In this document: positions 1-63,604 of the stretch, piece after piece
Layout: each line of letters begins with the position of its first letter
How positions within the stretch are numbered: position 1 is the stretch's first letter
DNA from: a virus
DNA length: 64,000 nucleotides
Reading direction: 5' to 3' (one strand)
IMG/VR virus record: IMGVR_UViG_3300011113_000202
Coordinates: 6,057 to 70,056 of that record
Notes under the pieces: generated by a model
The model's database searches: none
The model's input: only the letters and a program-made list of their open reading frames with translations
What the model was told of the DNA's origin: nothing
Program-made: the position numbers and the translations under genes

Positions 1-1
1 C

Positions 2-766
2 GCATACACAAATGCAGGCGCAACATTTACAAAAGTAGAACTTACAACCAAAAAGATTCGTCTTGACTGGGAAGTATCTACAGAGTCTCTAGAAGACAAT
101 ATTGAAGGAGCGGCTCTTGAAGATCGTCTCGTTCGCTTGATGACCAATGCATTCGCAAATGACATTGAAGATCTAGCGATTAACGGTGATGGTGCTACAG
201 GATCATTCCTTTCAATCATGTCTGGCTTTATTAAGCAAACTCGTGGTACAGTAGGAAACGCTGCTCATGAAGCAGATGTTACCGTATCTGATAACGAGTG
301 GACTCCACAAGTAATGCAGGATATCATTCTTGCAATGCCACGTAAGTATCGTGCACTTAAGAGCAATCTTAAGTTCTATGCAGGTACTGACGCATTCCAG
401 GGTATCGTTAAGAATAACGGTACACTCGCTGACGCTATTGCTGAAGCGATTGCTGGACAAACACCAGGTAGCACACAGGCTAACCGTCAAGCATATCTTG
501 ATGGTCTAGGACAGACATTCGGTGGTTCTCGTACCACCCGTGTTCTTGGAGTGGATGTACTTGAGGTTCCTTACTATCCAGCAGGATATGTAGATCTCAC
601 ATTCCCTGAGAACCGTGTCTGGGGCTTCCAGCGTGATATCACGGTAAACCGTGAATACAAGCCAAAGAAGGATACTGTAGAATATACAGTTTTCGTTCGC
701 TTTGGTATTGCATGGGAAGAGTTGGATGCAGTTGCTTATGGCGACGCAGACAGCGCAGATTCCTAA
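2..766 (+). CDS. Major capsid protein (HK97-like), 5'-truncated by window edge
   Basis: Frame is open from nt 2 (AYTNAGATFTKVELTTKKIRLDWEVSTESLEDNIEG...NDIEDLAINGDG); C-terminal NRVWGFQRDITV..EY..FVRFG is typical of capsids; lies upstream of head-tail genes. Confidence 0.9.
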   Translation, partial: AYTNAGATFTKVELTTKKIRLDWEVSTESLEDNIEGAALEDRLVRLMTNAFANDIEDLAINGDGATGSFLSIMSGFIKQTRGTVGNAAHEADVTVSDNEWTPQVMQDIILAMPRKYRALKSNLKFYAGTDAFQGIVKNNGTLADAIAEAIAGQTPGSTQANRQAYLDGLGQTFGGSRTTRVLGVDVLEVPYYPAGYVDLTFPENRVWGFQRDITVNREYKPKKDTVEYTVFVRFGIAWEELDAVAYGDADSADS

Positions 767-28700: not shown

Positions 28701-29062
28701 TTATTGAAGCAGGTCGCACTTATATTGTTCTTGCAAATGATAATAGGATTGTATCTGCAGTTCCAGTTGATGAAATATCTCAATCCAAAGATGCCCTAGT
28801 TAAGTTTCTAAATTATAAGATGCTACCTTATAAAGAAGGCGAGCACTATGTTGTATCATTCAAGCCTAGAGTTACAAAGGCTGGAAAAAAGATGGCATCT
28901 CTTACTGTTGCAGATGCAGGCAGAGAATTACACGCCATAACAGTATTTCCAACTGCATTTCCAAAAGCATACATGAATGTTCAAGCAGGAAACGTATATA
29001 AGTTTGAATTTAAAGAAACAAAAGATGGAACTACAATAATGGAGGATGTAATAAATGTTTGA
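25787..29062 (+). CDS. dnaE: DNA polymerase III alpha subunit
   Basis: PHP HVHTHYS and ITDHG; GRGSSAGS; FPDIDSD; HAAGVV; YSFNKSHAVAY. Confidence 0.97.
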   Translation: MSYVGLHVHTHYSLMDGVATPQEYVKRAVELGMPAIAITDHGTLSGHREMYRTCKEAGIKPILGVEGYIAYDRFDKRDKADRTGPLDLNYFHIVLLAKNQQGLENLNKLNEIGWTEGFYKKPRIDFEVLQKYKEGIIVLSACMSGLIAKAIEVGEYAEAKKHIEWFKQNFGDDFYIEVMPHNKQEINESLVELAKSYSVKIVVTPDCHHSTVDQKIIQEMMLLLNTHAKLQKDVTYEKSKKQKDMMDRLDYLYGAERQMSFRSFDIHLLSRDEMANAMAEHGIKDEQMFASTIEIANKVEDYDIKFGLNLLPVQYKKPLEELRSLAIKGLTNLGLIDRQEYVDRLEEELSVISEKNFAPYFLVVYNMLSWAKKQEIMVGPGRGSSAGSLLCYAIGITDIDPIKHGLLFFRFINPERNDFPDIDSDIQDSRRDEVKDYLVKQYRHVASIATFLEFKDKGVVRDVSRALNIPLPDVNKVLKTVDTWDDFVTSKNSEWFREKYPEVIIYGEQLRGRIRGTGIHAAGVVTSKEPIFRYAPMETRSSPGSDERIPVVGVDMEEAEKIGLIKIDALGLKTLSVIKDCIDIIKEREGTKIDLLKIDMDDRNVYDMLSDGYTKGVFQCEATPYTNLLVKMRVKNLAELAASNALVRPGAMNTIGKDYIARKHGRQNIDYLHQILKPFTEETYGCILYQEQVMQACVQLGGMTMAEADKVRKIIGKKKDAREFDEFKDRFIKGASAYISPNSALDLWHDFEAHAGYSFNKSHAVAYSTVSYWTAWLKYYYPLEFMFALLKNEKDKDARTEYLIEAKRMGIPIRLPHINESEIDFKIEGKGIRFGLSAIKWISNTIAERYIAARPFKSFKEVEEFTFTKGNGVNSRALQAMNSVGALTFIDNPADQERVRENVYEYLNLPEFNMQIPQHYYAYINDIEEYEEKGAFILMGMVKSIKRAKGWSRVELLDKTGSVGIFDEENTVIEAGRTYIVLANDNRIVSAVPVDEISQSKDALVKFLNYKMLPYKEGEHYVVSFKPRVTKAGKKMASLTVADAGRELHAITVFPTAFPKAYMNVQAGNVYKFEFKETKDGTTIMEDVINV

Positions 29063-42380: not shown

Positions 42381-42448
42381 TGGTATAATAGATAGTGCAC
42401 CTGCCAAATGGGGGTGCACTACTTACTCGCTTAATAAGGAGGCAAAAA
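42381..42448 (+). promoter_or_regulatory. hsp20 promoter and structured 5' UTR (ROSE-like)
   Basis: TGGTATAAT; TAGTGCACC/GGTGCACTA hairpin; CTCGCTT pairs with the SD AAGGAG. Confidence 0.55.
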
Positions 42449-42880
42449 ATGGTAAGTTCATTTGCACTGGATCTTTTTAAAGATCCATTTTTTATTGGTT
42501 TCAACAGAGAGTTGGACCGTCTTTCAAATATCCATCGTGAGGCAACTCGTCAGTCGTTTCCACCATATGATTTGGTGAAACTTGATGAGGACAACTATAA
42601 GATATCTCTTGCAGTTGCTGGTTTTAGTAACAGCGAAGTAGAGGTTTCTGTGGATAACGGAAGTCTAATTATCAAGGGTGAGAAAACCGAAGAGGCTTCT
42701 ACTGAAGTTCTGCATAAGGGTATCGCAACCAGAAAGTTCACACGCACCTTTGCTCTTGGAGAGTATATGGAGGTTGATCGTGCTGAAATGGCAGACGGTA
42801 TTCTTAGCGTCTTTGTGGAAAGAAACATTCCCGAAGAAAAAAAGCCTAAGAAAATCCAAGTTAAATCTACTAAAAAGTAG
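42449..42880 (+). CDS. Small heat shock protein Hsp20 (IbpA-like)
   Basis: FPPYDLVK..LAVAGF..LHKGIATRKFTRTFAL..DGILSV..IPEEKKPKKI. Confidence 0.93.
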   Translation: MVSSFALDLFKDPFFIGFNRELDRLSNIHREATRQSFPPYDLVKLDEDNYKISLAVAGFSNSEVEVSVDNGSLIIKGEKTEEASTEVLHKGIATRKFTRTFALGEYMEVDRAEMADGILSVFVERNIPEEKKPKKIQVKSTKK

Positions 42881-42890
42881 ATAGAATAGT

Positions 42891-42976
42891 AGAACCCCAT
42901 ACAGGAACTTAGGGTGGATTAGTTACCTACTTTACATTCCGTGGCATTCGTGCTTCGATTCCTGTGTGGGGCTTCT
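42891..42976 (+). ncRNA. Candidate structured RNA, unknown family
   Basis: 13-bp closing stem CCCCATACAGGAA/TTCCTGTGTGGGG with two inner hairpins; TAGAAT -10 at 42882-42887. Confidence 0.45.
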
Positions 42977-43001
42977 ATATTTTGATATAATATTAATTGC
43001 T

Positions 43002-43277
43002 ATGACTGAAAAAGAATTAGCAACAAAAACAAAGCAGCAGTATAAAAAAAGACTCGCTGAAATAAAGCAGGCGAGTGGGTGTGTAGACTGCGGAGAAAAT
43101 AATCATATAGTTCTTGATTTTGATCATTTAAGAGATAAAAAATATAACATTTCAAGAATGATTCATGATGGTTTTTCTTGGAAAGCAATATTAAAAGAAA
43201 TTCAAAAGTGTGAAGTTGTTTGTGCAAATTGTCATCGAATTAGAACATATGATAGGTTGACAACAGAAACAGCCTGA
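43002..43277 (+). CDS. HNH endonuclease
   Basis: CVDC..LDFDHL..VCANCHRIRT. Confidence 0.85.
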   Translation: MTEKELATKTKQQYKKRLAEIKQASGCVDCGENNHIVLDFDHLRDKKYNISRMIHDGFSWKAILKEIQKCEVVCANCHRIRTYDRLTTETA

Positions 43278-43291
43278 TGCTATAATTGACT

Positions 43292-43368
43292 TATCCTTAT
43301 GGGCAGTCTTTTTTCCTTTCTCTTCTGCCCAAGGGTACGGACACCTGAGTATGTGTATAAACTGCTCA
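43292..43368 (+). ncRNA. Structured leader/sRNA: anti-SD-loop hairpin plus H-type pseudoknot
   Basis: TGCTATAAT 43278-43286; TGGGCAG/CTGCCCA stem; ACAC-CTGAGTAT-GTGT-ATAAAC-TGCTCA. Confidence 0.55.
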
Positions 43369-43387
43369 TTAATAAAAAGGAGTATTA

Positions 43388-43564
43388 ATGCCTAAGTATG
43401 ATTACAAGTGTGACACTTGTGGTTCTATAGTTGAATTTGAGCGTGGTATGGGAGAAGATAGAGGGCCATCTTGTTGCTCTAATATCATGACACGTATATG
43501 GAATTCTGCACCTGGCATTATGTTTAATGGTTCTGGTTTTTATTCAACTGACAATAGAAAGTAG
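43388..43564 (+). CDS. FmdB-family zinc-ribbon protein (58 aa, not in ORF track)
   Basis: MPKYDYKCDTCG..SCC..FNGSGFYSTD; AAGGAG RBS. Confidence 0.85.
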   Translation: MPKYDYKCDTCGSIVEFERGMGEDRGPSCCSNIMTRIWNSAPGIMFNGSGFYSTDNRK

Positions 43565-43579
43565 AGATATAATTATATT

Positions 43580-43840
43580 ATGAGTTTAATTGTAAAAGAG
43601 CATCCTAGTGTAAAGCAAAAAGAATGGCTATTAAAAGCAATAGACAGGTGTGATAGTTGTGGTGCTCAAGCCTATGTAATGGTAAAAGGCTCTACTGGAG
43701 ATCTGATGTTTTGTGGTCATCACTATGAAAAAATTATGAATAACCCAGATGCCTATACAAAAATGATGGCATTTATGCTTGAAGTTGTTGATGAGCGTGA
43801 GCGTTTGATAGACAATAAATTGATAGGGAGTCATAACTAA
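43580..43840 (+). CDS. Zinc-finger hypothetical protein
   Basis: DRCDSCGAQAYV..LMFCGHH; leaderless-type start. Confidence 0.7.
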   Translation: MSLIVKEHPSVKQKEWLLKAIDRCDSCGAQAYVMVKGSTGDLMFCGHHYEKIMNNPDAYTKMMAFMLEVVDERERLIDNKLIGSHN

Positions 43841-44247
43841 TGTACCAATATTATGTAAGAGAAGTAAAATCAGTTGTTGATGGAGATACCATTGATGTTA
43901 TTATTGATTTAGGTTTTAATATTCTTTTTGAACAACGTGTCCGTATGGCTGGAATAGATACTCCAGAATCTCGTACTAAAGATAAGTTTGAAAAAAGTCT
44001 AGGTATTGAATCAAAAGAATATTTAAAGAAACATCTAAAGGATGCTAAATCTGTTGTAATTAAGACTGAGAAAATGGATTCGTCTGAGAAGTATGGTCGT
44101 ATTTTAGGTTGGGTATATATCAATGGAGATACAGAATCTCTTAATGATAAGATGATTAATGATGGTTATGCTTGGGGCTATCTTGGAGATACCAAAGTTA
44201 AAGATTTTTCAGCATTAGCAGCACAAAGAAAAAAATCTGGTAAATGA
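43840..44247 (+). CDS. Thermonuclease (SNase-like)
   Basis: VVDGDTID, RVRMAGIDTPE, KYGRILG. Confidence 0.9.
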   Translation: MYQYYVREVKSVVDGDTIDVIIDLGFNILFEQRVRMAGIDTPESRTKDKFEKSLGIESKEYLKKHLKDAKSVVIKTEKMDSSEKYGRILGWVYINGDTESLNDKMINDGYAWGYLGDTKVKDFSALAAQRKKSGK

Positions 44248-44498
44248 AAACCGTATATTATTTTACTGCAGATTGGTGTTCGCCATGCAAGCGAACAAGA
44301 CCAATAGTAGAGGAACTTAGTCGTGAGCAAACAACTGCCATGTTTCAAATAATAGACGTTGATGATAATTCTACTTTAGCAAATACATTTGCGATTCAAT
44401 CTATTCCAACATTTATTTTATTTGAAAACGGTATAGAAAAGAATAGAATTATAGGTGGACAAACCAAGGAAAGTTTGATAGGCTTTATAAATGGATAA
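44244..44498 (+). CDS. Thioredoxin
   Basis: FTADWCSPCK, IDVD, IPTF. Confidence 0.9.
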   Translation: MKTVYYFTADWCSPCKRTRPIVEELSREQTTAMFQIIDVDDNSTLANTFAIQSIPTFILFENGIEKNRIIGGQTKESLIGFING

Positions 44499-44823
44499 AA
44501 ACAGTAAAGAAATAGAAAGGCTCATTCTGGCTGGAGCAATACAGGTTGCTGGTGTAGATGAAACTGGAGAACTGCTATATCAGTTTACCCCAAAAATGCA
44601 AGAGGTAAATGAGCAACTGTATAAAGATCATCTTAATTTTGTTAATTCTGAGATTATGAAACTATGGGAAACTGGCTATGTCAATGTTGATCTATTGTCA
44701 GATGAGCCGATAGTGACCTTAACCAAGAAGGCTTTTATTCCAGATGCCCTTGCCAAATTAACAAAACAACAGCGCTGGTCTTTAGAGGAAATAAAAAGGC
44801 TGCTTAAAAAGCGAGAAGTCTGA
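44491..44823 (+). CDS. Hypothetical protein
   Basis: Coupled ORF. Confidence 0.6.
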   Translation: MDKNSKEIERLILAGAIQVAGVDETGELLYQFTPKMQEVNEQLYKDHLNFVNSEIMKLWETGYVNVDLLSDEPIVTLTKKAFIPDALAKLTKQQRWSLEEIKRLLKKREV

Positions 44824-44835
44824 TATAATCTTAGT

Positions 44836-46077
44836 ATGCCATATCGTGTAGGTTCAAGAGGTTCGTATGGGTGCTCTGGCTACCCTGCTGTAAAAGAGGA
44901 CGGTACCGTAATGGGCTGTCACGAAACACGAGCACAGGCTGCTGCACAGATTTATGCAATTAATCAAAGCGAAGGCAATATTGGTAAGAACATGCACGAA
45001 ATCAAAGAAGGAGATTTTGTCATGGGTGCAACCAGTGAAGGTCTTGTTCATGGTGTAGTTGAGCATATAATGACTGAAGGTGGAACTCTTGGAACACCTG
45101 GAACAAGATATGCTCTTGAGTCAATGCCACCAGAAAATCCTGCAATGTCTGTCAGGGTTTATAAAGAAGAAGATGGCGAATGGGAACCAACTGCTTATAG
45201 CATCGGAATGATGTATGCAGATGCACAAAAAATAGATATTGAAACACATAGCATGGACGCAGAAGAAACTATGAAATCTTATCATTCTGATAATGAAGAA
45301 GAAGACAAATGGGATAATATTACTAAGGCATGTTGGGTAGGATATGAACAGCAAGGAATGAAAGAAAAAGATGGCAGAATGGTTCCAAATTGTGTTCCAG
45401 TTGGAAAGTCAAATAATATAGATAAAGCAAAAGGTATCTCCGTTGGAGATCACGTTTTGTTTGCTGTTCCAAAACCACCAGATAAGACTGAATCTGCTCA
45501 TGGACTTGTAGAAAGAGTTGAAAGATCTGGCACTGTAAAAATTCCTGGAACAAATGAAAGCGTTGAAGCATCTGCAGATAATCCTGTTGCTATTGTTAGA
45601 GTATATGCAATGGATGAAAATGGCAAGATGACTAGAACAGATAGACGTGTTGCAAAACCTTTTAGTTCTTTAAGAATTTCTTCTAAACCTATTGATAAAT
45701 CAATGCATGATGAAGATGATGACGAAGATGATGATGTAAAAAAAGCATCTGCAAAAGTAGAATCAAGACTAAGAGAATTAGTTGAAGATTATAATAAAGG
45801 TAAAGAAGGAAACAAAAAAATAACTGTTGGTACTTTAAGACAAGTATATAATCGTGGCATCGGTGCATATAGAACTAACCCATCTTCTGTACGTGGTAGC
45901 GTAGCAAGTGCAGAACAATGGGCTATGGGAAGAGTTAATGCTTTTATGGCAGGACTTCGTGGTAGATTTCCAAGAAAACCATTTGATTTAGATTTATTTC
46001 CAAGTGGTCATCCAAGATCAACTAAAAAGTTTGACTGGTCTGGATCATTATTTGATATTAAAACTTTTAGGAGATAA
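44836..46077 (+). CDS. Multi-module protein (candidate internal head polyprotein)
   Basis: Short modules separated by xxK-[S/A/N] motifs; CWVGYEQQGMKEKDGRMVPNCVP; VYNRGIGAY..EQWAMGRVNAF. Confidence 0.6.
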   Translation: MPYRVGSRGSYGCSGYPAVKEDGTVMGCHETRAQAAAQIYAINQSEGNIGKNMHEIKEGDFVMGATSEGLVHGVVEHIMTEGGTLGTPGTRYALESMPPENPAMSVRVYKEEDGEWEPTAYSIGMMYADAQKIDIETHSMDAEETMKSYHSDNEEEDKWDNITKACWVGYEQQGMKEKDGRMVPNCVPVGKSNNIDKAKGISVGDHVLFAVPKPPDKTESAHGLVERVERSGTVKIPGTNESVEASADNPVAIVRVYAMDENGKMTRTDRRVAKPFSSLRISSKPIDKSMHDEDDDEDDDVKKASAKVESRLRELVEDYNKGKEGNKKITVGTLRQVYNRGIGAYRTNPSSVRGSVASAEQWAMGRVNAFMAGLRGRFPRKPFDLDLFPSGHPRSTKKFDWSGSLFDIKTFRR

Positions 46078-51789: not shown

Positions 51790-51819
51790 AAGGCGGGCTT
51801 AGAAATAGGCCCGCTTTTT
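51790..51819. terminator. Terminator between convergent blocks
   Basis: GCGGGCTTA/TAGGCCCGC stem followed by TTTTT. Confidence 0.75.
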
Positions 51820-52867
51820 ATTTTAATGAATCAAATAATTCAATATATTTATCTTTTAATACTTCTGGAGAAAAGGATCCCACTCCAATATCAAGCGCTT
51901 GCTCTTTAAGTTTTATCTTATCTTTCTTTTTCATATTAATAAAATTATCAATTAACTTTGCTAATTGTTTTGGATCACCTTCATAAACATCTATAATAGA
52001 TTTAGCCCTAAACTCACCTATTTTTTCAGCATCTACTAGCCATTCTTTTGGAAGTATTTGATTGTTTGGTGATAAGTCTGTCATAAAAACGGGAAGTCCA
52101 CTTATAAGAGCCTCATTCATAGGCAAACATAGTCCAGCATACCTTCTTGGTAAAACCATTGCATCAAATCCATAATATAGATCTTGCCTATCTTTTAAAT
52201 TTTGATATAAAAATGATACTCTTGGATCTTTTGGTCTTCCCTCAAATTCTGTTTGAGAGGTTATCACTAAGTTATAATCTTCTTGAGAATACTTAAGCAT
52301 TTCAAGAACCGTATCTGTTCCATTTCTATCTCTTGCTGCTTTTTTACCAGCAACATGCAAAATACGATTGTGCATTTTTGCCATGTTTTCATTTCTAGCA
52401 CGATCAAATAGTTTTATGTCTGTAGGCGGGGGTAGATGAATAAGCCTTGCCTGATCTCCAAACATGGTCTGCATTTTATTAAAATTCCATAGGCTAGGGG
52501 CTAACAATACATCTGGTAAAGACTCGCTTTTATGTTCCATATTAACTAAGAATTCATAGTTATATTGAAGAACTGTTTTAACTCCCATATCTCTTGCTAT
52601 ATCAACAAACATAGAAGAGTAAAAAGTTTCACAAGATAATACAACATCTAGGTCTTTAAGAAAGGATATTATTTCTCCACGTTTTGGAAAACCAAATCTT
52701 GTCACTGTATTATCGTAGTTTTCATACCACTCAAAATGTTGTTTATTTTTATTAAATTTTGTTGAGTCTATTATGAGAACCTTTCTAGGCTTGAGCATTT
52801 TTACAAGTTCTCTAGTTTGATTGCCTAAGCCTGTATTGTCGCATCGTACGATTATGCCAAGTCTCAT
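51818..52867 (-). CDS. Glycosyltransferase (GT-B)
   Basis: DNTGLGNQ..PRRYAGLCLPMNEALISGLPV. Confidence 0.8.
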   Translation of the reverse strand: MRLGIIVRCDNTGLGNQTRELVKMLKPRKVLIIDSTKFNKNKQHFEWYENYDNTVTRFGFPKRGEIISFLKDLDVVLSCETFYSSMFVDIARDMGVKTVLQYNYEFLVNMEHKSESLPDVLLAPSLWNFNKMQTMFGDQARLIHLPPPTDIKLFDRARNENMAKMHNRILHVAGKKAARDRNGTDTVLEMLKYSQEDYNLVITSQTEFEGRPKDPRVSFLYQNLKDRQDLYYGFDAMVLPRRYAGLCLPMNEALISGLPVFMTDLSPNNQILPKEWLVDAEKIGEFRAKSIIDVYEGDPKQLAKLIDNFINMKKKDKIKLKEQALDIGVGSFSPEVLKDKYIELFDSLK

Positions 52868-53625
52868 TCTTTATATCCCCAAACTAAATCATCGGTTGTA
52901 AACTTTTTTGTTCCCTCACGACCATCTAAATGATATGATCTTTTTATGTTTCCTTCAGGATGATAAATCCACAACTTATGAGTGTTCCATCCATCTTCAT
53001 TAAAGTAGCCATAAGGCAGCATGTCATCTTGAACCTTTCCGTGAAAAGTATCTTCTATAAAAAACTTATCTTTACAACTTGGTAATACAATATTTTTATA
53101 ATAATTTACTCTTGTCAGATGTGGTCTTTGACTCCATTGAGATGTTTTCATAAAACCATTCTCAAGCCCAAGCATCAAATGTTTATGAGGCTCAGGTATG
53201 GATGCTTCAAAATGAAAACGAATTGTGTTAGCCTTTTCATATTCAAACATATCTAAACACTTTGACCAGTCTATGTCAACATCTGGTGTTAATGGGGCAT
53301 CTGCTTCAACATAAAGCATTAAAGGTGTTTTAATTTCATTAATAGTTTCACGCATCATATTTGTTTGATGGCTGTGTTGTTCAAATATAAATGGTATTAC
53401 ATTTTTATATTCATGCAAACATTTCCAAAGTATGCGATTTTTGTACTCATCGTAATCATTTTTTCTATTTTTTTGTTCTTTTCGCAATCCATCTATCTGC
53501 ATAATTATTTCATTATTTGGAAAATGAACTCTAATAGAACTAATAGTCTCATCTATAATGTTTGTGTTTGGGTGGCTTGCTAAAACAGAACTAGCAATAA
53601 CTATTGTGACATTATCTTTATGCAT
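52864..53625 (-). CDS. Putative glycosyltransferase (GT-A-like)
   Basis: VTIVI..IDETISSI..MLYVEAD; cluster context. Confidence 0.6.
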   Translation of the reverse strand: MHKDNVTIVIASSVLASHPNTNIIDETISSIRVHFPNNEIIMQIDGLRKEQKNRKNDYDEYKNRILWKCLHEYKNVIPFIFEQHSHQTNMMRETINEIKTPLMLYVEADAPLTPDVDIDWSKCLDMFEYEKANTIRFHFEASIPEPHKHLMLGLENGFMKTSQWSQRPHLTRVNYYKNIVLPSCKDKFFIEDTFHGKVQDDMLPYGYFNEDGWNTHKLWIYHPEGNIKRSYHLDGREGTKKFTTDDLVWGYKE

Positions 53626-54466
53626 TTACTTGCTCCATAATCTTTATACCTAAATCTCTCTTATATTTAATCCACCAAGCAACAACCTTGTGCATATTTT
53701 CTGGGTATTGACTCAATAACTCAGGAGCCAAGTTGTGTAACTCAAACCAGTTAGAGACATGGGTAACAGGAATATGATACCCAAATAAATAATTATAAAA
53801 ATCTAAACTGTTACCGTTTGGATCTATCCTATCAAAAATAGGAAGACATAGCATTTCTATAGCCTCATAAAACCTAAAGGAGTCTATCACTACAGCCCCA
53901 GAGGGCACAGGAGCAACCTTGGCACTGGCTAGAGTTCTGTAGTAGTCTATTGGTTTATCTCCCTGTGCAAAGCCTGCTGTGGGCTTAAAAAGGGCATTTG
54001 GCATAGTTTGTATAGCCTTAGCCAACTGCTGTCTTCTTGAGTGAGTTATCTGACCACCAAAATATAAATCATTATCCTTAGAAGGATATTCAGGAACGAA
54101 CCTTTTTAGATGTTGGGGCACACCTATCGGTAATTTATTATAGTTCTTATGTTTTTCATGAGGGTACTGAATCCATATCTCAGCATTGGGATGATTAATC
54201 TTAGTTATATCAAACTTACCTTCTTCATCCCCCGTAATAAATAAAACAACTCTTGAAAGGTTTTGTATTTGAGCATTAATATCTTCTTCATGACCAAGGT
54301 TTTGAGGTCCAGGAACTACAACAAATCCACGATCAGTATTAGGAATAGAAGTTACCTTTACTTGATCCACGTCGTATTTATCAAATATTTCTTTAAGAAG
54401 ACCATAGTCCCACTTATCAGCAGCACAGTCTTCTTGTTTAACTGAGTAGAGATATGCGTTAGTCAT
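53618..54466 (-). CDS. Exostosin/GT47-like glycosyltransferase
   Basis: LYFGGQ..RRQQL..PSG..DSFRFYEAIEMLCLPI. Confidence 0.7.
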   Translation of the reverse strand: MTNAYLYSVKQEDCAADKWDYGLLKEIFDKYDVDQVKVTSIPNTDRGFVVVPGPQNLGHEEDINAQIQNLSRVVLFITGDEEGKFDITKINHPNAEIWIQYPHEKHKNYNKLPIGVPQHLKRFVPEYPSKDNDLYFGGQITHSRRQQLAKAIQTMPNALFKPTAGFAQGDKPIDYYRTLASAKVAPVPSGAVVIDSFRFYEAIEMLCLPIFDRIDPNGNSLDFYNYLFGYHIPVTHVSNWFELHNLAPELLSQYPENMHKVVAWWIKYKRDLGIKIMEQVNA

Positions 54467-55080
54467 GTTAAAATTTTCCATAATTTTTCTTCTACAATAA
54501 GTTTACCAATTAAATCTTCGTCTATGTAAGATGGATCATGTACATATGCTATCTGTGAGTTATACTTTTTGATTGCCTCAATTTTATGCTTTGTAAAATT
54601 AATTGAAATGTTTTTTAAAGTATAGACTGACTCAAACTGTTTTAATCTTTCTTTATGTAACTTTGGATGCGACATCCTATATGGCAATTCAGCATATACA
54701 AAATATGTTTTATTAAAATTTTTCATTAAATTAAAGAGATTATCTGATAACAAAACATGGTCTGGATGATAAATACCCAATGGAATATATATATTATCAA
54801 AATTTACAATTATACTTTTTATCCAATCAATTAAAATATCTTCATCTTGTTTTCCATAAACATCATCTAGTAAATCTCCATTAATAACTTTAGCATTTAT
54901 CATAGAACAGGCTTCCTCATGTTCTTTTCTTAATCTAATATGCTTTTTGTATCCTGCCCAATCTTTTGGTATACCAGCAAATGCAGATGCAATAGTAAAC
55001 TCATTATTATTATCAATAATATGATCACCTAAAGAAAAAATTGCATCATCTGTATGTGGACAAAATATAAGACTACTCAT
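54463..55080 (-). CDS. PIG-L/LmbE-family deacetylase
   Basis: PHTDDA..R.KE..HPDH..K..AIKKYNSQ. Confidence 0.85.
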   Translation of the reverse strand: MSSLIFCPHTDDAIFSLGDHIIDNNNEFTIASAFAGIPKDWAGYKKHIRLRKEHEEACSMINAKVINGDLLDDVYGKQDEDILIDWIKSIIVNFDNIYIPLGIYHPDHVLLSDNLFNLMKNFNKTYFVYAELPYRMSHPKLHKERLKQFESVYTLKNISINFTKHKIEAIKKYNSQIAYVHDPSYIDEDLIGKLIVEEKLWKILT

Positions 55081-55783
55081 AGAATAAGTGCACCTCATGC
55101 TGATAATCTAAAATAGTTTCTTTATATCCTAATTTTTTTATCCATTGTCTAAGATCATATAAAAATTCATTCCATTGTTGTAGCATAAATTCAGGGTGTC
55201 CAGATAGCCAAATCTTTGGTTTATACTGTTTAAGCACCTTCTCAGCCCCCTCTAATACTCTCCATTCGCTACCCTCTACGTCTAATGAAATGGCGGTAGG
55301 TGGCTTAATACCATGATCATATACACAAGAGTCTATAGTTATTTGACCATATAAATCACCTTCAAGGTATAACTCTTTAAAGCCATGTGCGATATCAACA
55401 TAATCTATCTCTGCTTCTGGAGGAAATTTCTTATAATATATTTTTGCAAGATTATTTATTTTATTAGAAGCAAATGCAGCAATACAAGCCATTGGAAGTT
55501 CTAAATTATTAGAAGACCAAGTTAGTGGAAAATGTGACCATACTTTAGGGTTTGGTTCAAACAAAACAACTTCTGCCCCCCACATTTGGCATAAGGCTGG
55601 GAACTCTCCCTCTTCTGCACCAACATAATAAACAACATCTCCTTTACCAATGTGTTCATTCATTGATTTAAGTCTTAGTTTTTCCCAACCCTTTTCTGAA
55701 TGCCACTCTGGTCTATCTGCACGATGTTTTGGAAGCACAATTTCAAACTCTCCATTTAAAATTGTTTTAATCATCTCTGTCAT
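55073..55783 (-). CDS. FkbM-family methyltransferase
   Basis: YVGAEEG..FEPNP..LDVEGSEWRVLEG. Confidence 0.8.
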   Translation of the reverse strand: MTEMIKTILNGEFEIVLPKHRADRPEWHSEKGWEKLRLKSMNEHIGKGDVVYYVGAEEGEFPALCQMWGAEVVLFEPNPKVWSHFPLTWSSNNLELPMACIAAFASNKINNLAKIYYKKFPPEAEIDYVDIAHGFKELYLEGDLYGQITIDSCVYDHGIKPPTAISLDVEGSEWRVLEGAEKVLKQYKPKIWLSGHPEFMLQQWNEFLYDLRQWIKKLGYKETILDYQHEVHLFYE

Positions 55784-56289
55784 TTCATTGCCTCCATAAA
55801 ATAGAATTCATGTTCCCGTGTATCAAGTTCATAAATTTTGTTGTTTGATAGTGCACTTTCTTTATAGTTTACTTTTGTTATATTTTTAAATCCACTATCA
55901 TGTAACTTATATTTTAATGCTTTATGTGTTAATAAAGATGTTGATGTTGAGTACCAAGTTAGCCAAGAAGAAAAACGTATGTCTATATTGTCTTCAGAGT
56001 TAGGAAAAAAGTTAATATTATTATTTTTATATGCATCAAATCCAGAAACAATATCTGGCAAACTAATTCTAACCACACCACCAGGCTTTAACACACGATT
56101 AAATTCTAGTAAGGCTGCATTAATTTTATGATAGGGTATTGAACAAATTGTTGCATGAGAAACTAAAATATCACAGGAGTTGTCTGGAATTAAGTGTAAA
56201 TTTTTGTGCTCCGTTTTATACTCAGGATCAATATCTATGTTTATCCAGTCAGCAGGCTGTATGCTTCCACATCCAAAATTTATTTTCAT
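55780..56289 (-). CDS. SAM-dependent methyltransferase
   Basis: NFGCG..WINID..RVLKPGG. Confidence 0.85.
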   Translation of the reverse strand: MKINFGCGSIQPADWINIDIDPEYKTEHKNLHLIPDNSCDILVSHATICSIPYHKINAALLEFNRVLKPGGVVRISLPDIVSGFDAYKNNNINFFPNSEDNIDIRFSSWLTWYSTSTSLLTHKALKYKLHDSGFKNITKVNYKESALSNNKIYELDTREHEFYFMEAMK

Positions 56290-57170
56290 TGTTGTATCCA
56301 ATCCATTATAGATATCTTTGGAGTCCATCCAGTTAATTCTTTAAACTTTGCGTTTGATGCAAGAGTTTCTTGAACTTCTCCAACTCTTGGCGGTATAAAC
56401 TTAATATCATTTGAAATCATATTAGCGATATCAAGTATAGAATAGTTACTTCCATACCCAATATTATACACCTCACCAAACCCATTTTTAACTTCAGACG
56501 CAAGTATGTTTGCTTGAACTACATCTGATATGTGCGTAAAGTCTCTACGCTGAGATCCATCTCCAACTACTGTTAGTGGCTTTCCTTCTTCATGCTGTTT
56601 TAAAAATAAACCTATAACTGGTGCATATTGACCTTTTAATGGCTGTCTATCTCCATATACGTTAAAGTATCTAAGGGAAACAGTCTCTAGTCCATATAGA
56701 TTATAGTAGACTCTTGCAAGGTTTTCACCAAAAACTTTAGCAGTAGAGTATGGTGTTAGTGGGTCAGAAGGCTGTGTCTCTATGTTTGGAAGAATTGCCT
56801 TCTTGCCATATGCAGAGGATGTACTTGAATAAATAAATCTTTTTACTTTATTAATTCTAGATAACTCAATAACATTTGCAGTACCAACTGCGTTTGATTC
56901 AATAGACTTTCTTGGATTTAATATTGCAGGCTGTATTCTTGCATCTGACGCAATGTGAAAAACATAGTCAATACCATTAAATAGTGGAGCAATCTTATCG
57001 TAATCACAAATATCATACTTGTAGTTGTTTGCTTTTGGGTTCCAATAAAACTGATCATGGCACTCTGCTGACTCATTATCTATACAAATAACTTTATGAT
57101 CAAGTTCAATTAACTTATCAACAAGGTTTGAACCAATAAATCCAGCACCACCTGTTACCAAAGAGTTCAT
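56286..57170 (-). CDS. NAD-dependent nucleotide-sugar epimerase/dehydratase
   Basis: GGAGFIG, SSTSSAYG, YSTAK, LRYFNVYG, GDGSQRRDF. Confidence 0.92.
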   Translation of the reverse strand: MNSLVTGGAGFIGSNLVDKLIELDHKVICIDNESAECHDQFYWNPKANNYKYDICDYDKIAPLFNGIDYVFHIASDARIQPAILNPRKSIESNAVGTANVIELSRINKVKRFIYSSTSSAYGKKAILPNIETQPSDPLTPYSTAKVFGENLARVYYNLYGLETVSLRYFNVYGDRQPLKGQYAPVIGLFLKQHEEGKPLTVVGDGSQRRDFTHISDVVQANILASEVKNGFGEVYNIGYGSNYSILDIANMISNDIKFIPPRVGEVQETLASNAKFKELTGWTPKISIMDWIQQ

Positions 57171-58123
57171 TTGATTCCAAGTTCTTCTAGAATTTCTGAC
57201 CATCTATTAAGATATGTGTGCTCGCTCTTTGTTCGTTCATGACCACGCTTTCTTATTGCTTCCCGCTCATCTCCATGCTCAAGATAGTAATCTATCTTTT
57301 GCTTAAGATCATCAAGGTTGCCATGTTCATACCAAACAATTTCATCTTCATTAAAGTATTTATCAAGTCCGACTATCTTAGGATAAATAGTAAAGCCACC
57401 ACGACCAGTACTTTCAAATAGCCTATCGCTTGTGTAATATGGATAGTTAAAGTTTAAATTTAATGTATCTCCAATAGCAATCTTGCTTTTTGCATAAATA
57501 CGATTTAATGCATCACCTCTGATTGTTCCTGTATCTCCATCTCCACCTACATGACAAAATCTATCTTTATATGTTTCTCTTAAAAAATCTATTAGTTGTG
57601 GTCTAAATGGATATTCGTGATGATATCTTTTGCTTCCCACGAAAATTACATCGTGTTCATAATATTTTTTATTGTAGTCTATATGTATATAACACTCTTT
57701 GTCGTATACTCCAGGTGGCATAAAGTGGCCTTTTACCTTTGTATTTTTATTAAACCAGTCAGCCATCAATTTGTCAACGGTAAAAAAATGTCCTATTGAT
57801 TTATAAAAACCATCATTTTCAAGATCCTTTTGCCTATTAATACCAAACCATAGGTCAAGATGATATGTCATTGTTGGTATGCCCTGCTTTTTTAGTTCAT
57901 GCAAAACATCAACCATGTCTATACTTCCTGGTGTCTGCCAGCCGTGTGTATGTACCCAAATAAATAAATCAGAATCAAGAGCCTCAGCATAAATTACTTT
58001 AGACTTTACCTTGCGCTCTTGTAGTTTTATTACTGTATGACCTAATGATTCAAGCGATGCCGCATGATGATTCTCGCTAGAGTAAGGAACCTCAAAGTTT
58101 CCTAAAAAAGTAATCCGTGCCAA
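57167..58123 (-). CDS. CgeB/YkvP-like glycosyltransferase
   Basis: DVIFVGS..SDRLFESTGRGG..EHTYLNRW; TTG start with GGAGG RBS. Confidence 0.8.
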   Translation of the reverse strand: MARITFLGNFEVPYSSENHHAASLESLGHTVIKLQERKVKSKVIYAEALDSDLFIWVHTHGWQTPGSIDMVDVLHELKKQGIPTMTYHLDLWFGINRQKDLENDGFYKSIGHFFTVDKLMADWFNKNTKVKGHFMPPGVYDKECYIHIDYNKKYYEHDVIFVGSKRYHHEYPFRPQLIDFLRETYKDRFCHVGGDGDTGTIRGDALNRIYAKSKIAIGDTLNLNFNYPYYTSDRLFESTGRGGFTIYPKIVGLDKYFNEDEIVWYEHGNLDDLKQKIDYYLEHGDEREAIRKRGHERTKSEHTYLNRWSEILEELGIK

Positions 58124-63021: not shown

Positions 63022-63216
63022 TTAATCAGGGTTAGAAGATTCATGGTTTGGGCATACGGGAAAGAGTTGATAGCCGATTGATTTGATACCCTCGGATTTT
63101 TGATCACAGAAATAGCATTGAGCCATAAACGCTAGGTTCTTTTGTCGCATCTCGTCCAACATTTGGACTAGGCGTACATCCTTATACCATTTCGTTTCTT
63201 GGCTAGGCATGGACAT
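63022..63216 (-). CDS. Small Cys-containing protein
   Basis: CYFC..CPNH. Confidence 0.55.
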   Translation of the reverse strand: MSMPSQETKWYKDVRLVQMLDEMRQKNLAFMAQCYFCDQKSEGIKSIGYQLFPVCPNHESSNPD

Positions 63217-63316
63217 ATCCCATTATATAGGCACAGGTTTTGCAGACATACATGGTTTGGGTTTGGGTTACTAATTTGGTAAATCTATGTTTGTCATCTT
63301 CACAATATTTCCACAT
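63203..63316 (-). CDS. Small Cys/His protein (37 aa)
   Basis: AGGAG RBS; MWKYCEDDKH..CKTC; the longer TTG start in the ORF track is probably leader RNA. Confidence 0.55.
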   Translation of the reverse strand: MWKYCEDDKHRFTKLVTQTQTMYVCKTCAYIMGYVHA

Positions 63317-63334
63317 GGTTTCTCCTAATTCTAA

Positions 63335-63441
63335 TGAGCAGTTTTTCTCATACTCAGGAGACTGCTTCCAATTTCTGTGGATGGGGTGGAGCAAATTTAT
63401 CAGATCCCCATATGCGGTTTTGTGGTTGCAGGTTACCCTGC
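63335..63441 (-). ncRNA. Structured leader ending in H-type pseudoknot (copy 2)
   Basis: TGCTATAAT 63448-63456 (-); GCAGG-GTAA-CCTGC; TCTC-CTGAGTAT-GAGA-AAAAC-TGCTCA. Confidence 0.55.
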
Positions 63442-63604
63442 TCAATAATTATAGCATATAAAGTCCTTACTGATATAAAAATGTTATTCCAAGTGTGGAG
63501 GAAAGTGGAGGGAAGTGGGGAATGGAGCACTTTCTAGTGAGGGATCGTAATGCCAAACCCCAAACCTTTTAATCTACAAACCTTGATATCCCCGATATGG
63601 GCGT

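Follow-up and report, generated by a model that had tools for sequence, protein, structure and literature searches.

A recurrent RNA pseudoknot of about 31 nt, usually placed behind stop codons, in tailed phages and prophages

The 64,000-nt stretch of viral DNA analysed here (the window) carries two members of a very large family of H-type RNA pseudoknots, about 31 nt long, that is found in tailed phages and prophages. The usual site of the element is 5–7 nt past the stop codon of the upstream gene, almost never closer, and we tentatively interpret it as a constitutively folded structure by which the upstream cistron has its 3′ end protected or defined.

An earlier note on this DNA had described two copies of a pseudoknot, and both are present, at 43341–43368 on the plus strand and at 63361–63335 on the minus strand. 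Copy 1 starts at 43341 and reads ACAC-CTGAGTAT-GTGT-ATAAAC-TGCTCA-TTA, while copy 2, from 63361 downwards, reads TCTC-CTGAGTAT-GAGA-AAAAC-TGCTCA-TTA. As the note had claimed, stem 1 changes between them in a compensatory manner (ACAC/GTGT versus TCTC/GAGA) with pairing kept in both, and the loop UGAGUA pairs with UGCUCA, including one U-G pair, in a stem 2 that covaries in the family. The parts of the two copies are as follows.

43341..43344, plus strand: copy 1 stem 1, 5′ strand ACAC, pairing with 43353–43356; its last C is family position C1
43345, plus strand: copy 1 loop 1, the single nucleotide C2, read from the sequence
43346..43351, plus strand: copy 1 stem 2, 5′ strand UGAGUA, pairing with 43363–43368 with one U-G pair
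43353..43356, plus strand: copy 1 stem 1, 3′ strand GUGU, from sequence and family covariation
43357..43362, plus strand: copy 1 loop 3, AUAAAC, of which AAAC is conserved, read from the sequence
43363..43368, plus strand: copy 1 stem 2, 3′ strand UGCUCA, from sequence and family covariation
63335..63361, minus strand: copy 2, whole pseudoknot, from pattern match and covariance model
63361–63358 with 63349–63346, minus strand: copy 2 stem 1, read from the sequence
63356–63351 with 63340–63335, minus strand: copy 2 stem 2, read from the sequence
63345–63341, minus strand: copy 2 loop 3, AAAAC, 1 nt shorter than loop 3 of copy 1

The pattern CCTGAG-N(6-16)-AAACTGCTC has exactly two matches in the window, at 43344–43367 (plus) and 63336–63358 (minus), and none in 100 dinucleotide-preserving shuffles of the window; no third copy of the pseudoknot lies within it. 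A pattern scan of the full virus record (70,056 bases) returned the same two copies only, and a reversed control pattern had no match in that record. When the window was searched with a covariance model built from 99 related copies, copy 1 scored 44.0 bits (E 7e-10) and copy 2 scored 32.2 bits (E 1e-6), the next-best match being noise (13.6 bits, E 0.23). Nested-only folding of the window copies gave weak z-scores of −1.2 to −2.0, which say little either way since such folding cannot represent a pseudoknot.

Beyond the window, each of four exact-pattern scans of IMG/VR yielded at least about 116–120 loci, and an exact-pattern scan of GTDB genomes yielded at least 118; the copies lie in phages and prophages, bearing out the phage association that had been suggested, and the hosts named in record titles span many phyla. 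Records hold one to nine copies each (matches at E 0.01 or less). The carriers are of unrelated types, with a Kyanoviridae phage, an Autographiviridae phage and the Lactobacillus phage phiAQ113 (Caudoviricetes only in its record) among them. The cultured phages S-RIM4 (a cyanophage, 175 kb), ParMal1 (a Paracoccus phage) and phiAQ113 have a single copy each, and the element is therefore not a general punctuation of every cistron. The consensus is NNNC-C-UGAGYA-W-GNNN-NN-AAAC-UGCUCA, in which stem 1 comprises 4 bp (three sequence-free pairs and a closing C-G pair), loop 1 is a single C (C2, held fixed in all patterns and scans), stem 2 joins UGAGYA of the hairpin loop to UGCUCA in 6 bp, the stem junction is one nucleotide, A or U, and loop 3 has 6 nt ending in AAAC. 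Unpaired and loop positions are strongly constrained: C19 is C in 337 of the 339 matches of the scan that left this position free, and A8 and G10 are 98–99% conserved where left free in scans. No conserved helices or columns were seen outside the 31 nt in the family alignment.

Both stems show covariation support across hundreds of copies, in agreement with the H-type pseudoknot originally proposed. First, stem 1 pairs are formed in 99/99, 97/99 and 78/99 of the copies among the matches listed, with up to four Watson–Crick types each, and the pair at 99/99 uses all four. The stem 1 covariation score is 0.389 versus 0.119 in shuffles, a level reached by none of 500 shuffles, and slid controls pair in only 23–40% of cells. 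Second, stem 2 was assessed by leaving the partner position free in each pattern scan. Among the matches listed, fixing C23 returned G at position 5 in 105/107, fixing A4 returned U at position 24 in 95/116, and fixing A21 returned U at position 7 in 63/83, compared with 29% U where G occupies position 21. Further, unascertained copies from the same loci showed no non-pairing combination in 12 stem 2 variants. Lastly, a scan that fixed only C1, C2, G10 and AAA and accepted any 6-bp complement as stem 2 gave 339 matches versus 5–8 in shifted-register controls, and its variants included A6-U22, C6-G22, G8-C20 and C3-G25. The pair 7-21 is U-G in 28/99 copies. Such pairs become A-C mismatches on the opposite strand, and the fold is therefore strand-specific; it lies in the mRNA sense strand, between genes.

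The pseudoknot had been described as matching no named family, and Rfam 15 agrees. Neither copy was matched when the whole window was searched at the gathering score, and for the 221-nt and 241-nt stretches around the copies, searched at E up to 10, only noise was returned (miRNA, snoRNA and CRISPR-repeat models, E 0.9–9). The analogy drawn with ToxI, another small, A-rich pseudoknot with links to phage biology, is not favoured by the family context: in ToxI, repeats of about 36 nt stand in tandem beside toxN, whereas the window copies are single, 20 kb apart on opposite strands and different in stem 1, and their neighbours are HNH and zinc-ribbon ORFs with no toxN-like gene. A tRNA-like end of the TYMV type was also rejected, as just 26 of 664 copies have ACCA after position 24 and the window copies have AUUA. 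Searches of the literature by sequence string and by words found no description of the motif, with the qualification that a related candidate may be listed among the supplementary motifs of PMC5737381; the accessible portions of PMC5737381, of PMC4604425 and of a 2026 Minerva preprint do not mention it.

Of 664 copies, 405 have a stop codon within 30 nt upstream, and the gaps between this stop and stem 1 are distributed as 4 nt (9 copies), 5 nt (97), 6 nt (66), 7 nt (43), 8 nt (23) and 9 nt (29); a gap below 4 nt was found in only 7. The 405 upstream ORFs fall into 244 clusters. Such tight spacings could alternatively reflect genome compaction and steric limits, with no link to any one neighbour.

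Some copies adjoin non-coding RNAs. A tRNA follows in 36 of 529 copies at a distance of 2–13 nt, mostly 2–8 nt, and 23 of these 36 copies also have an upstream stop within 20 nt; some copies lie between tRNAs. In one locus (L523) type III hammerhead ribozymes start at the last base of the pseudoknot twice, at 50.5 bits (above the Rfam gathering score) and 41.2 bits (below it), and in another (L271) once, at 33.3 bits, below the gathering score. Judged by eye, hammerheads likewise abut the pseudoknot in L008, L011, L457, L254, L519 and L601, with cleavage sites 6–13 nt after it. An Rfam scan of five related loci matched only tRNAs and type III hammerheads, with no match over the pseudoknot or over the leader of a Lactobacillus scaffold gene.

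We postulate that the pseudoknot would stay folded directly after the stop codon, at the nearest point that a terminating ribosome permits without unwinding it, and that in this form it may define or shield the RNA 3′ end of the upstream cistron against 3′-to-5′ exonucleases. The RNA downstream would be removed by RNase P where a tRNA follows, by the hammerhead ribozyme where one is present, or by other nucleases or termination. An exonuclease block would be expected to occupy the 3′ UTR from the point where a terminating ribosome ceases to cover the RNA, and this is where the element is found (gap mode 5–7 nt; stop within 20 nt in 340/559 copies). The option raised in the earlier note, that the element caps or stabilises an upstream RNA, is close to the role we infer here. 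Two known arrangements offer parallels. In the MALAT1 and MEN-beta transcripts a tRNA-like mascRNA is cut off by RNase P and the 3′ end is protected by an A-rich triple helix. Given the tRNA 2–13 nt behind the phage element, an RNase P cut would therefore leave an RNA ending in a compact structure with an A-rich loop, and hammerheads occupy the same positional role elsewhere; MALAT1, in contrast, is a eukaryotic nuclear lncRNA without homology to the phage element, the A-tract clamped in its triple helix is genomically encoded, and protection by the phage element is our proposal. REP hairpins, terminator hairpins and T7 RNase III sites are likewise intergenic, co-oriented with genes, close after stops and proposed as exonuclease barriers, but these are simple hairpins without conserved loop nucleotides, whereas the phage element is a pseudoknot with near-invariant unpaired bases in phages of many host phyla. 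Several points count against a barrier. A plain GC-rich hairpin would also stop exonucleases, and the near-invariance of A8, G10 and C19 across many phyla, at positions left free in scans, suggests a more specific partner or chemistry. An ordinary terminator hairpin follows the pseudoknot in some copies (L508, L514), making a barrier there redundant, and 74 of 559 copies are near a downstream start and not near an upstream stop.

Both window copies are of this last kind. Their surroundings are as follows.

42395..42880, plus strand: small heat-shock-protein-like (sHSP) gene, a name read from the sequence and not from a family search
42966..43277, plus strand: HNH-endonuclease-like ORF, from the ORF list; its DNA matches annotated phage HNH endonuclease genes
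43257..43286, plus strand: sigma-70-type promoter TTGACA-18-TATAAT with TG, upstream of copy 1, with 12/12 consensus positions, as a pattern match only
43294..43336, plus strand: leader hairpin between this promoter and copy 1, from sequence and fold
43388..43564, plus strand: 58-aa FmdB-like zinc-ribbon ORF downstream of copy 1, with AAGGAG at 43377–43382
63448..63456, minus strand: TGCTATAAT, an extended −10 upstream of copy 2, read from the sequence
63441–63428, minus strand: leader hairpin GCAGG-GUAA-CCUGC upstream of copy 2, read from the sequence
63411–63381, minus strand: leader hairpin AUGGGG...CCCCAU upstream of copy 2, from the sequence and also in the computed fold
63203..63316, minus strand: 37-aa Cys-rich ORF downstream of copy 2, with AGGAGA at 63326–63321

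The layout reported previously, namely promoter, hairpin, pseudoknot, Shine–Dalgarno sequence (SD) and Cys-rich ORF, is thus present at both window copies, but it is not typical of the family, where a same-strand ORF stops within 20 nt upstream in 340/559 copies and an SD with a start lies within 45 nt downstream in only 193/559. TGCTATAAT did not appear in the two-hexamer promoter scan because it has no −35 match, and no terminator-like sites were found around either window copy. The promoter of copy 1 overlaps the end of the HNH ORF, which belongs to the stretch 42881–43340 between the sHSP stop and copy 1, and the leader hairpin of copy 1 is not conserved in the family, whose alignment has no conserved upstream columns. 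Relatives help to place this arrangement. Upstream sHSP-like ORFs occur at 11 related loci, and in two of the relatives (L272 and L273) the counterpart of the copy 1 locus has the order sHSP gene, stop, pseudoknot, SD and zinc-ribbon gene; in the sequence of L272 the gap from sHSP stop to pseudoknot is 5 nt. Compared with L272 and L273, the window has the HNH cassette, including promoter and hairpin, between the sHSP stop and copy 1. We suggest that the window arrangement may be secondary: a mobile HNH cassette, bringing along a promoter and a hairpin, would have split copy 1 from the sHSP stop, so that its pseudoknot would now stand in the leader of the next small gene.

The 58-aa ORF matches Pfam Zn_ribbon_8 at E 1e-6 and 29.1 bits, under the 34.4-bit cutoff, and the 37-aa ORF matched no Pfam family. 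The proposed tie to zinc-finger microproteins does not extend to the family, in which only 7 of 266 downstream ORFs are FmdB-like and the 266 form 179 clusters, the representatives of the largest clusters having no Pfam family or being scaffold or zinc-ribbon proteins. Assembled contigs of four RNA runs give patchy cover of 42400–44900, from which RNA ends are not readable. A related pseudoknot with a zinc-ribbon gene is present on two freshwater metatranscriptome contigs, where DNA carry-over is possible. One metatranscriptome contig with a related copy extends 355 nt upstream and 77 nt downstream of it, with no end at the pseudoknot.

The window copies by themselves would point to a leader element for the downstream gene, that is, an operator or enhancer to which a protein (the zinc-ribbon microprotein is one candidate) or the 30S subunit would bind, and which would set translation or 5′-end stability of the next cistron. 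Both stand in leaders that have a strong promoter-like site upstream and the start codon 20 nt further on, and in copy 2 the sequence UCUCCU of stem 1 and loop can pair with the SD AGGAGA in a nested fold. Across the family the 193/559 copies with SD and start within 45 nt, the lower bound of about 18–20 nt on the distance to the start, just outside an initiating ribosome (starts are 20–40 nt away), and the recurrence of an FmdB-like gene downstream in 7 loci, the window counted, agree with this. The wider family nevertheless makes such a role unlikely: 221/559 copies lie close after a stop with no start within 45 nt downstream, a convergent ORF ends within 60 nt downstream in 38/515 and leaves no downstream gene to control, a following tRNA or hammerhead cuts the pseudoknot off from downstream RNA, the downstream genes are as diverse as their 179 clusters, and the SD is outside the structure across the family, starting at a median of about 10–20 nt past the fold.

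An action on transcription, whereby the nascent structure pauses, terminates or anti-terminates RNA polymerase or blocks Rho after the ribosome has left the stop codon, has a similarly small chance of being correct. The element is placed where translation ends and naked RNA begins, it precedes untranslated RNAs (tRNAs and ribozymes), and several copies, including L511, L563 and L577, fill the entire gap between the two stop codons of convergent genes, where there is no room for a classical terminator. A TTTT starts within 8 nt after the element in 89/605 copies, and in phiAQ113 the pseudoknot is followed by UUUUU; however, 516/605 copies have no U-run, the 15% with one is near chance given the T-rich flank, and most copies are in co-directional gene strings, where full termination would be harmful. 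An intrinsic terminator in particular was rejected, as U-runs are no general feature and downstream terminator-like hairpins show no enrichment (51 versus 49 on the control strand).

The near-invariant unpaired nucleotides in a pseudoknot spread over many phyla would also suit a small catalytic RNA, either a new self-cleaving class or part of one, that processes phage transcripts between genes as hammerhead, twister, pistol and hatchet do. RNAs of such a kind typically perform sophisticated biochemical tasks, a heuristic from the Breaker laboratory given in PMC5737381 that counts in favour of catalysis. The element also abuts hammerheads and tRNAs in phage DNA, and known self-cleaving classes are reported to cluster with each other and with phage genes (PMC4604425). 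We nonetheless regard a ribozyme as quite unlikely, in that no further conserved helices or nucleotides flank the element, no Rfam ribozyme model matches, and a second cleaver would be redundant where a hammerhead or tRNA follows. To our knowledge no natural self-cleaving class is as small as about 31 nt. The element has a resemblance to the pistol ribozyme (RF02679), which according to PMC4604425 is phage-associated and lies near other ribozymes, and in which the loop of the P1 hairpin engages in a pseudoknot of 6 bp, downstream of a conserved linker rich in A. Pistol, however, needs P2, P3 and the cleavage-site junction between them, whereas in the phage element the 3′ strand comes directly after the linker; the pistol model gave no Rfam match, and no helices like P2 or P3 are conserved outside the 31 nt.

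A mechanical roadblock, which would halt post-termination or read-through ribosomes and so insulate cistrons, or would tune termination, is improbable. Luteovirus frameshift pseudoknots of the BWYV type and the pseudoknot in the T2/T4 gene 32 leader likewise span a 6–7 bp stem 2 with a one-nucleotide loop 1, and their A-rich loop 3, like that of the phage element, is able to occupy the minor groove of stem 1, a geometry that in the luteovirus type is mechanically strong. The 5–7 nt between stop and stem also equals the spacing of frameshift pseudoknots from the A-site codon of the ribosome, and the stop signals upstream are strong (TAA in 258/405; the base after the stop is most often U, at 45% in the gap-5 class). 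Frameshift stimulators follow a slippery heptamer, whereas the phage element is preceded by a stop codon 5–7 nt away and has an open same-strand frame across it in only 8/529 copies; it has no sequence similarity to the BWYV-type and gene 32 knots and stands beside unrelated genes at 1–9 copies per record. Moreover, with 5 nt between stop and stem a ribosome can do without any contact with the structure, the gap lengths follow no 3-nt period, and where a copy stands in a leader or between tRNAs no ribosome terminates upstream of it. For lack of such a period, an in-frame back-up stop inside the knot was also rejected.

The preQ1-I aptamer (RF00522) is a compact H-type pseudoknot of about 31–34 nt with a short stem 1 and a hairpin loop that pairs with a 3′ segment. 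The phage element resembles it in size and architecture, and in both an A-rich loop 3 closes with AAC where the 3′ strand of stem 2 begins, but a ligand-sensing riboswitch of this kind, included in the ligand-binding option proposed before, fits the family context poorly and is very improbable. No Rfam riboswitch, RF00522 included, matched at E up to 10. The junction is a single A or U and not a ligand pocket, the six full pairs of stem 2 would not need a ligand, and there is no expression platform, with neither SD nor terminator being part of the fold and terminators not enriched. The element follows stop codons and adjoins mutually unrelated genes, not queuosine genes. Among the 36 adjoining tRNAs, 22 are Asp, Tyr or Asn, which carry queuosine; of the full 334 tRNAs in the loci, only 69 belong to these species or to His. 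These counts are suggestive, but a tie to queuosine tRNAs was set aside as confounded by a shared synteny of DUF932 gene, pseudoknot and tRNA-Asp; the tRNA-Asp cases are therefore not independent. A DNA-level signal, either a promoter used by a phage polymerase or sigma factor or a homing-endonuclease target site, is hardly credible: distances of 20–40 nt to starts and 2–8 nt to tRNAs would suit transcription starting at the 3′ end of the element, and an HNH gene adjoins copy 1, but two interleaved covarying helices with U-G pairs are not expected of a duplex DNA site, the carrier phages are of unrelated types, and the sharp 5-nt limit after stops points to a constraint at the mRNA level. Covariation of both helices and the strand-specific U-G pairs likewise led us to reject a promoter reading of the element itself.

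Returning to protection of the upstream 3′ end, a more far-reaching version, which we put forward as speculative, is that phages whose hosts span many bacterial phyla share a 31-nt pseudoknot of triple-helix type as a bacterial counterpart of exonuclease-resistant RNAs. Cuts within a few nucleotides behind it, made by RNase P at an adjoining tRNA or by a hammerhead, would mature and armour the 3′ end of the upstream message, in the manner of MALAT1 and mascRNA but in viruses of prokaryotes. If this is true, the abutting phage hammerheads and some phage tRNA genes would gain a job as makers of 3′ ends. A bolder alternative makes the knot itself a self-cleaving ribozyme, which would then be the smallest natural one.

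If the motif is indeed undescribed, as its lack of an Rfam match and limited literature searches suggest, it would be among the commonest unnamed structured RNA motifs in phage DNA. Its tiny size, textbook covariation in both helices and testable placement rule (5–7 nt after a stop, abutting tRNAs or hammerheads) make it tractable. For annotation, such sites are easily taken for promoters or riboswitch-like leaders, as in this window, and a 31-nt insulator or stabiliser that works across hosts may serve synthetic biology. For phage biology, the element could supply the hammerhead ribozymes of bacteria and phages, functionally a long-standing puzzle, with a role, and it could account for the way in which stability is set cistron by cistron in compact phage operons.

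Re-reading of the sequence at the two pseudoknots of the earlier note, copy 1 at 43341-43368 (+) and copy 2 at 63361-63335 (-), bore out both the positions and the reading. The pattern CCTGAG-N(6-16)-AAACTGCTC matches the window at exactly two places, 43344-43367 (+) and 63336-63358 (-), and is absent from 100/100 shuffles of it. Covariance model R1, built on stem 1 only, likewise found copy 1 and copy 2 only in the window, and a pattern search of the entire virus record (70,056 bases; IMG/VR lists it as linear and 65% complete) returned no others. With the invariant closing C of stem 1 as position 1, the element reads C1 C2 U3 G4 A5 G6 Y7 A8 W9 G10 n11-13 n14 n15 A16 A17 A18 C19 U20 G21 C22 U23 C24 A25. 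Its geometry is that of a classical H-type pseudoknot, with a stem 1 of 4 bp (positions -2..1 with 13..10), a loop 1 of 1 nt, a stem 2 of 6 bp (positions 3-8 with 25-20), a junction of 1 nt and a loop 3 of 6 nt with AAAC at its end.

The pseudoknot structure is firmly supported. Of the stem 1 pairs, the three that vary are formed in 99/99, 97/99 and 78/99 of the distinct copies compared, with up to four Watson-Crick types apiece, and the closing one is C-G in 97/99. None of 500 shuffles reached the covariation score of stem 1 (0.389, compared with 0.119 in shuffles), and slid-register controls had only 23-40% of cells paired; the test is fair because the variable positions are free in, or lie outside, the search pattern. 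Since the initial pattern fixed the sequence of stem 2, this stem was tested separately, in four ways. Extra copies in the same loci, unselected by the pattern, hold 12 stem 2 variants, all compensated or wobble, with 0 mismatches. In partner-free scans, counted among the matches listed and, unless stated, from copies with at least 3/4 stem 1 pairs, position 5 was G in 105/107 with C23 fixed, and position 24 was U in 95/116 (A 14, C 5, G 2) with A4 fixed. With A21 fixed, position 7 was U in 63/83 and C in 20 of the matches listed with all 4 stem 1 pairs; U stands there in 29% where position 21 is G. A script scan of 4.8 Mb whose sole requirements were a paired stem 1 and any 6-bp complement together with C1, C2, G10 and AAA gave 339 matches, compared with 5-8 when the 3' strand was set 3-9 nt out of register. 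Its variants include A6-U22, C6-G22, G8-C20 and C3-G25; C19, left free, was C in 337/339, and the spacer before AAA was 2 nt in 334/339. A minor class with AAAAGGCUC has no 8-20 pair (6 copies); in loci L048, L010, L085, L073 and L103 the variant ends AAAAGGCUC in place of AAACUGCUC, and this class lacks the otherwise invariant C19 as well as A8-U20. U-G pairs are common (pair 7-21 in 28/99 copies) and would be A-C mismatches on the opposite strand; the fold therefore belongs to the sense strand, and it is against this assignment that a DNA signal, one of the rival explanations of the element, has to be weighed.

The family is huge and unnamed. A pattern scan of IMG/VR gave at least 120 loci; 122 loci (120 from the scan and two of the virus's own record) hold 148 instances, 100 of them with the exact spacing of copy 1. 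Three IMG/VR scans for stem 2 variants gave at least 119, 119 and 116 loci, and a scan of GTDB, with one genome per species, at least 118. Among the matches listed for the GTDB set (n=121), stem 1 is paired 4/4 in 82, 3/4 in 36 and 2/4 in 3; with stem 1 paired in nearly all matches, chance matches are therefore negligible. R1 found 1-9 copies per record in 50/50 whole virus records, frequently clustered within a few kb. Among the GTDB matches listed, record titles point to Saccharibacteria, Aminicenantes, lactobacilli, clostridia, Bacteroidota, cyanobacteria, alpha- and beta-proteobacteria, Chloroflexota, Omnitrophota, Atribacterota, Spirochaetota, Akkermansia and others; many of these matches are MAG contigs, possibly of phages or prophages. 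The element is present in cyanophage S-RIM4 (Kyanoviridae) and Paracoccus phage ParMal1 (Autographiviridae), and the Lactobacillus phages phiAQ113, Lj771, phi jlb1 and KC5a match an element-containing query from the leader of a head scaffolding gene, the element itself having been read, among these four, in phiAQ113 only. S-RIM4, ParMal1 and phiAQ113 have a single copy each. In phiAQ113 (L617:2528-2600) and relatives L548, L553 and L597, the scaffold gene is separated from the pseudoknot by a second conserved stretch, UUUUUGUAUGCCUUGUGAGAGGCGAACUCGUA..., which matched nothing in Rfam and may be a leader element in its own right.

The copies are intergenic: just 8/529 fall inside a frame of the same strand that is open from -150 to +84. 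They are co-oriented with their neighbours, the closest ORF upstream sharing the strand of the copy in 417/515 and having the opposite strand in 32/515. Their sharpest positional relation is to the upstream stop codon, which (for open frames of at least 60 codons) lies within 30 nt upstream of 405/664 copies. Between stop and stem 1 lie 4 nt in 9 copies, 5 nt in 97, 6 nt in 66, 7 nt in 43, 8 nt in 23 and 9 nt in 29, followed by a tail; gaps below 4 nt occur in only 7 of the 664 examined. Given the layout of the ribosome's mRNA channel, with a gap of 5 nt the first base pair stands at about +12 from the P-site codon, as near as the knot can come before a ribosome with the stop in its A site would have to unwind it. 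The pseudoknot, conserved and on the sense strand, is thus kept just beyond what a terminating ribosome covers; a ribosome roadblock is a further rival explanation. The preceding stops (n=405) are TAA 258, TAG 105 and TGA 42, against a crude background of TAA 47%, TAG 21% and TGA 32%; TAG is relatively frequent and TGA rare. CTA-anticodon tRNAs, of the amber suppressor type, are three of the 334 tRNAs found by ARAGORN in the fetched loci.

Downstream starts show a looser relation, with an SD and start within 45 nt in 193/559 copies and a floor at ~18-20 nt; 221/559 are near a stop with no start within 45 nt, and 74/559 are near a downstream start and not an upstream stop. The functional picture in the earlier note was only partly right, the leader layout giving way to the upstream stop as the family's sharpest relation; an operator in the leader of the downstream gene is the rival that draws on the looser one. 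A convergent ORF ends within 60 nt downstream of 38/515 copies, and in several Saccharibacteria loci the knot occupies the entire space between two stop codons. The flanking genes are mutually unrelated, since upstream ORFs form 244 clusters among 405 and downstream ORFs 179 among 266; upstream, DUF932 forms the biggest cluster (33), ahead of an unnamed family (18), the sHSP-like family (15) and, in fourth place, DUF7249 (12). TATAAT is slightly enriched 30-59 nt downstream (22 vs ~8 per bin), and terminator-like hairpins downstream of the copies are not enriched. Another of the rivals is an element that acts on RNA polymerase or Rho.

Around both window copies the features described earlier are present: a promoter-like site, one or two hairpins in the leader, AGGAG and a small Cys-rich ORF. 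The stretch before copy 1 holds these features:

42966-43277, HNH-endonuclease-like ORF, within the stretch 42881-43340 from sHSP gene to knot
43257-43286 (+), copy 1 promoter, sigma-70 consensus 12/12 with TG extension (pattern match)

The sHSP gene ends at 42880, and 42881-43340, up to copy 1, comprises the HNH ORF, the consensus promoter and a hairpin. This stretch is missing from the relatives L272 and L273, where the order is sHSP-like gene, stop, pseudoknot, SD and the same FmdB-like Zn-ribbon gene, with a stop-to-pseudoknot gap of 5 nt in L272 (gap and sequence were read in L272 only of the two). Because this comparison shows the knot behind the sHSP stop, copy 1 is best read as a stop-proximal element which a mobile HNH cassette has apparently shifted into a leader. 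The stretch resembles a free-standing homing-endonuclease cassette placed beside a conserved 30-bp sequence, which might be the endonuclease target. At copy 2, TGCTATAAT lies ~75 nt upstream with two hairpins between, and a 37-aa ORF starts 19 nt downstream. Within 63321-63361 (-), UCUCCU (the 5' strand of stem 1 with C2 and U3) is complementary to the SD AGGAGA 35 nt downstream and paired with it in a nested fold, an alternative pairing that does not occur family-wide; a hairpin GCAGG-GUAA-CCUGC with a GNRA tetraloop (63428-63441, -) lies at the predicted 5' end of the copy 2 transcript. The phage occurs commonly in fresh water; at least 88% of the sampled words of 42400-44900 are present in each of 14 DNA runs, of which one may be the source sample. 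It has a gene for the alpha subunit of a DnaE-type DNA polymerase III with PHP, NTPase and finger domains (25787-29062, +), genes for glycosyltransferases and NAD-dependent epimerases/dehydratases in one block (51818-58123, -) and two very long ORFs of 2678 aa (5770-13806, +) and 1439 aa (14455-18774, +), the latter with no Pfam family.

A tRNA lies downstream of 36/529 copies, mostly at 2-8 nt (16 Asp-GUC, 4 Tyr, 3 Arg-UCU and others), and 23/36 of these copies also have a stop within 20 nt upstream. The tRNA-Asp counts are not independent because many share the order DUF932 gene, pseudoknot, tRNA-Asp. In the fetched loci L003-L498, 16/28 tRNA-Asp(GTC) genes stand directly behind a pseudoknot, and the queuosine-carrying Asp, Tyr or Asn make up 22/36 of the tRNAs so preceded. 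Other copies adjoin hammerhead ribozymes, three of them located as follows:

L523:7541-7595 (-), hammerhead
L523:7271-7325 (-), hammerhead
L271:955-1012 (+), hammerhead

These type III hammerheads start at the knot's last base (50.5 and 41.2 bits for the two in L523, 33.3 bits in L271), and by inspection L008, L011, L457, L254, L519 and L601 have a hammerhead at the same place. CUGAYGA occurs within 60 nt downstream of 12/658 copies, 9/12 being the hammerhead cases, with a background rate of 0.9%; the cleavage sites lie 6-13 nt beyond position 24. Hammerhead stem III and knot stem 2 abut or share A25. The two pseudoknot-hammerhead units of L523 are 270 nt apart and would release a ~270-nt RNA with 5'-OH and cyclic-phosphate ends. 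The knot is often the last structure before an RNA cut site (RNase P at the tRNA, or the hammerhead) or the end of a transcription unit.

Rfam 15 gave nothing at the gathering score over the whole window and noise only in permissive scans at both copies, and the earlier note likewise could match the element to no named family; on five related loci it gave tRNAs and hammerheads only. The defining features testable here were not those of preQ1-I, ToxI, frameshift stimulators, pistol, intrinsic terminators or TYMV-like ends. The preQ1-I aptamer, luteoviral frameshift knots, the MALAT1 triple helix with mascRNA, and REP or terminator stabilisers are built or work alike, yet the element is a member of none; a riboswitch is a rival to be read beside the first of these. 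Limited literature searches of article text turned up no description of the pseudoknot. What appears to be new is an RNA family with no Rfam match or description found in those limited searches; the fold is known, and the job is probably of a known kind.

Our tentative proposal, which we hold with some doubt, is that the knot, folded at all times, would protect or define the 3' end of the upstream cistron RNA against 3'-to-5' exonucleases, helped by the very short tails after RNase P or hammerhead cleavage and by the cyclic phosphate that a hammerhead leaves. Against 3'-end protection, however, a plain hairpin would suffice for the same job, the conservation of loop nucleotides exceeds the need of a mere barrier, cultured phages have one copy each, and ordinary terminators stand behind some copies. 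A catalytic RNA is also among the rival explanations. At its boldest, the reading is that in prokaryotic viruses the family may be the equivalent of RNA ends that resist exonucleases and are matured by RNase P, or that it may be a new minimal ribozyme.
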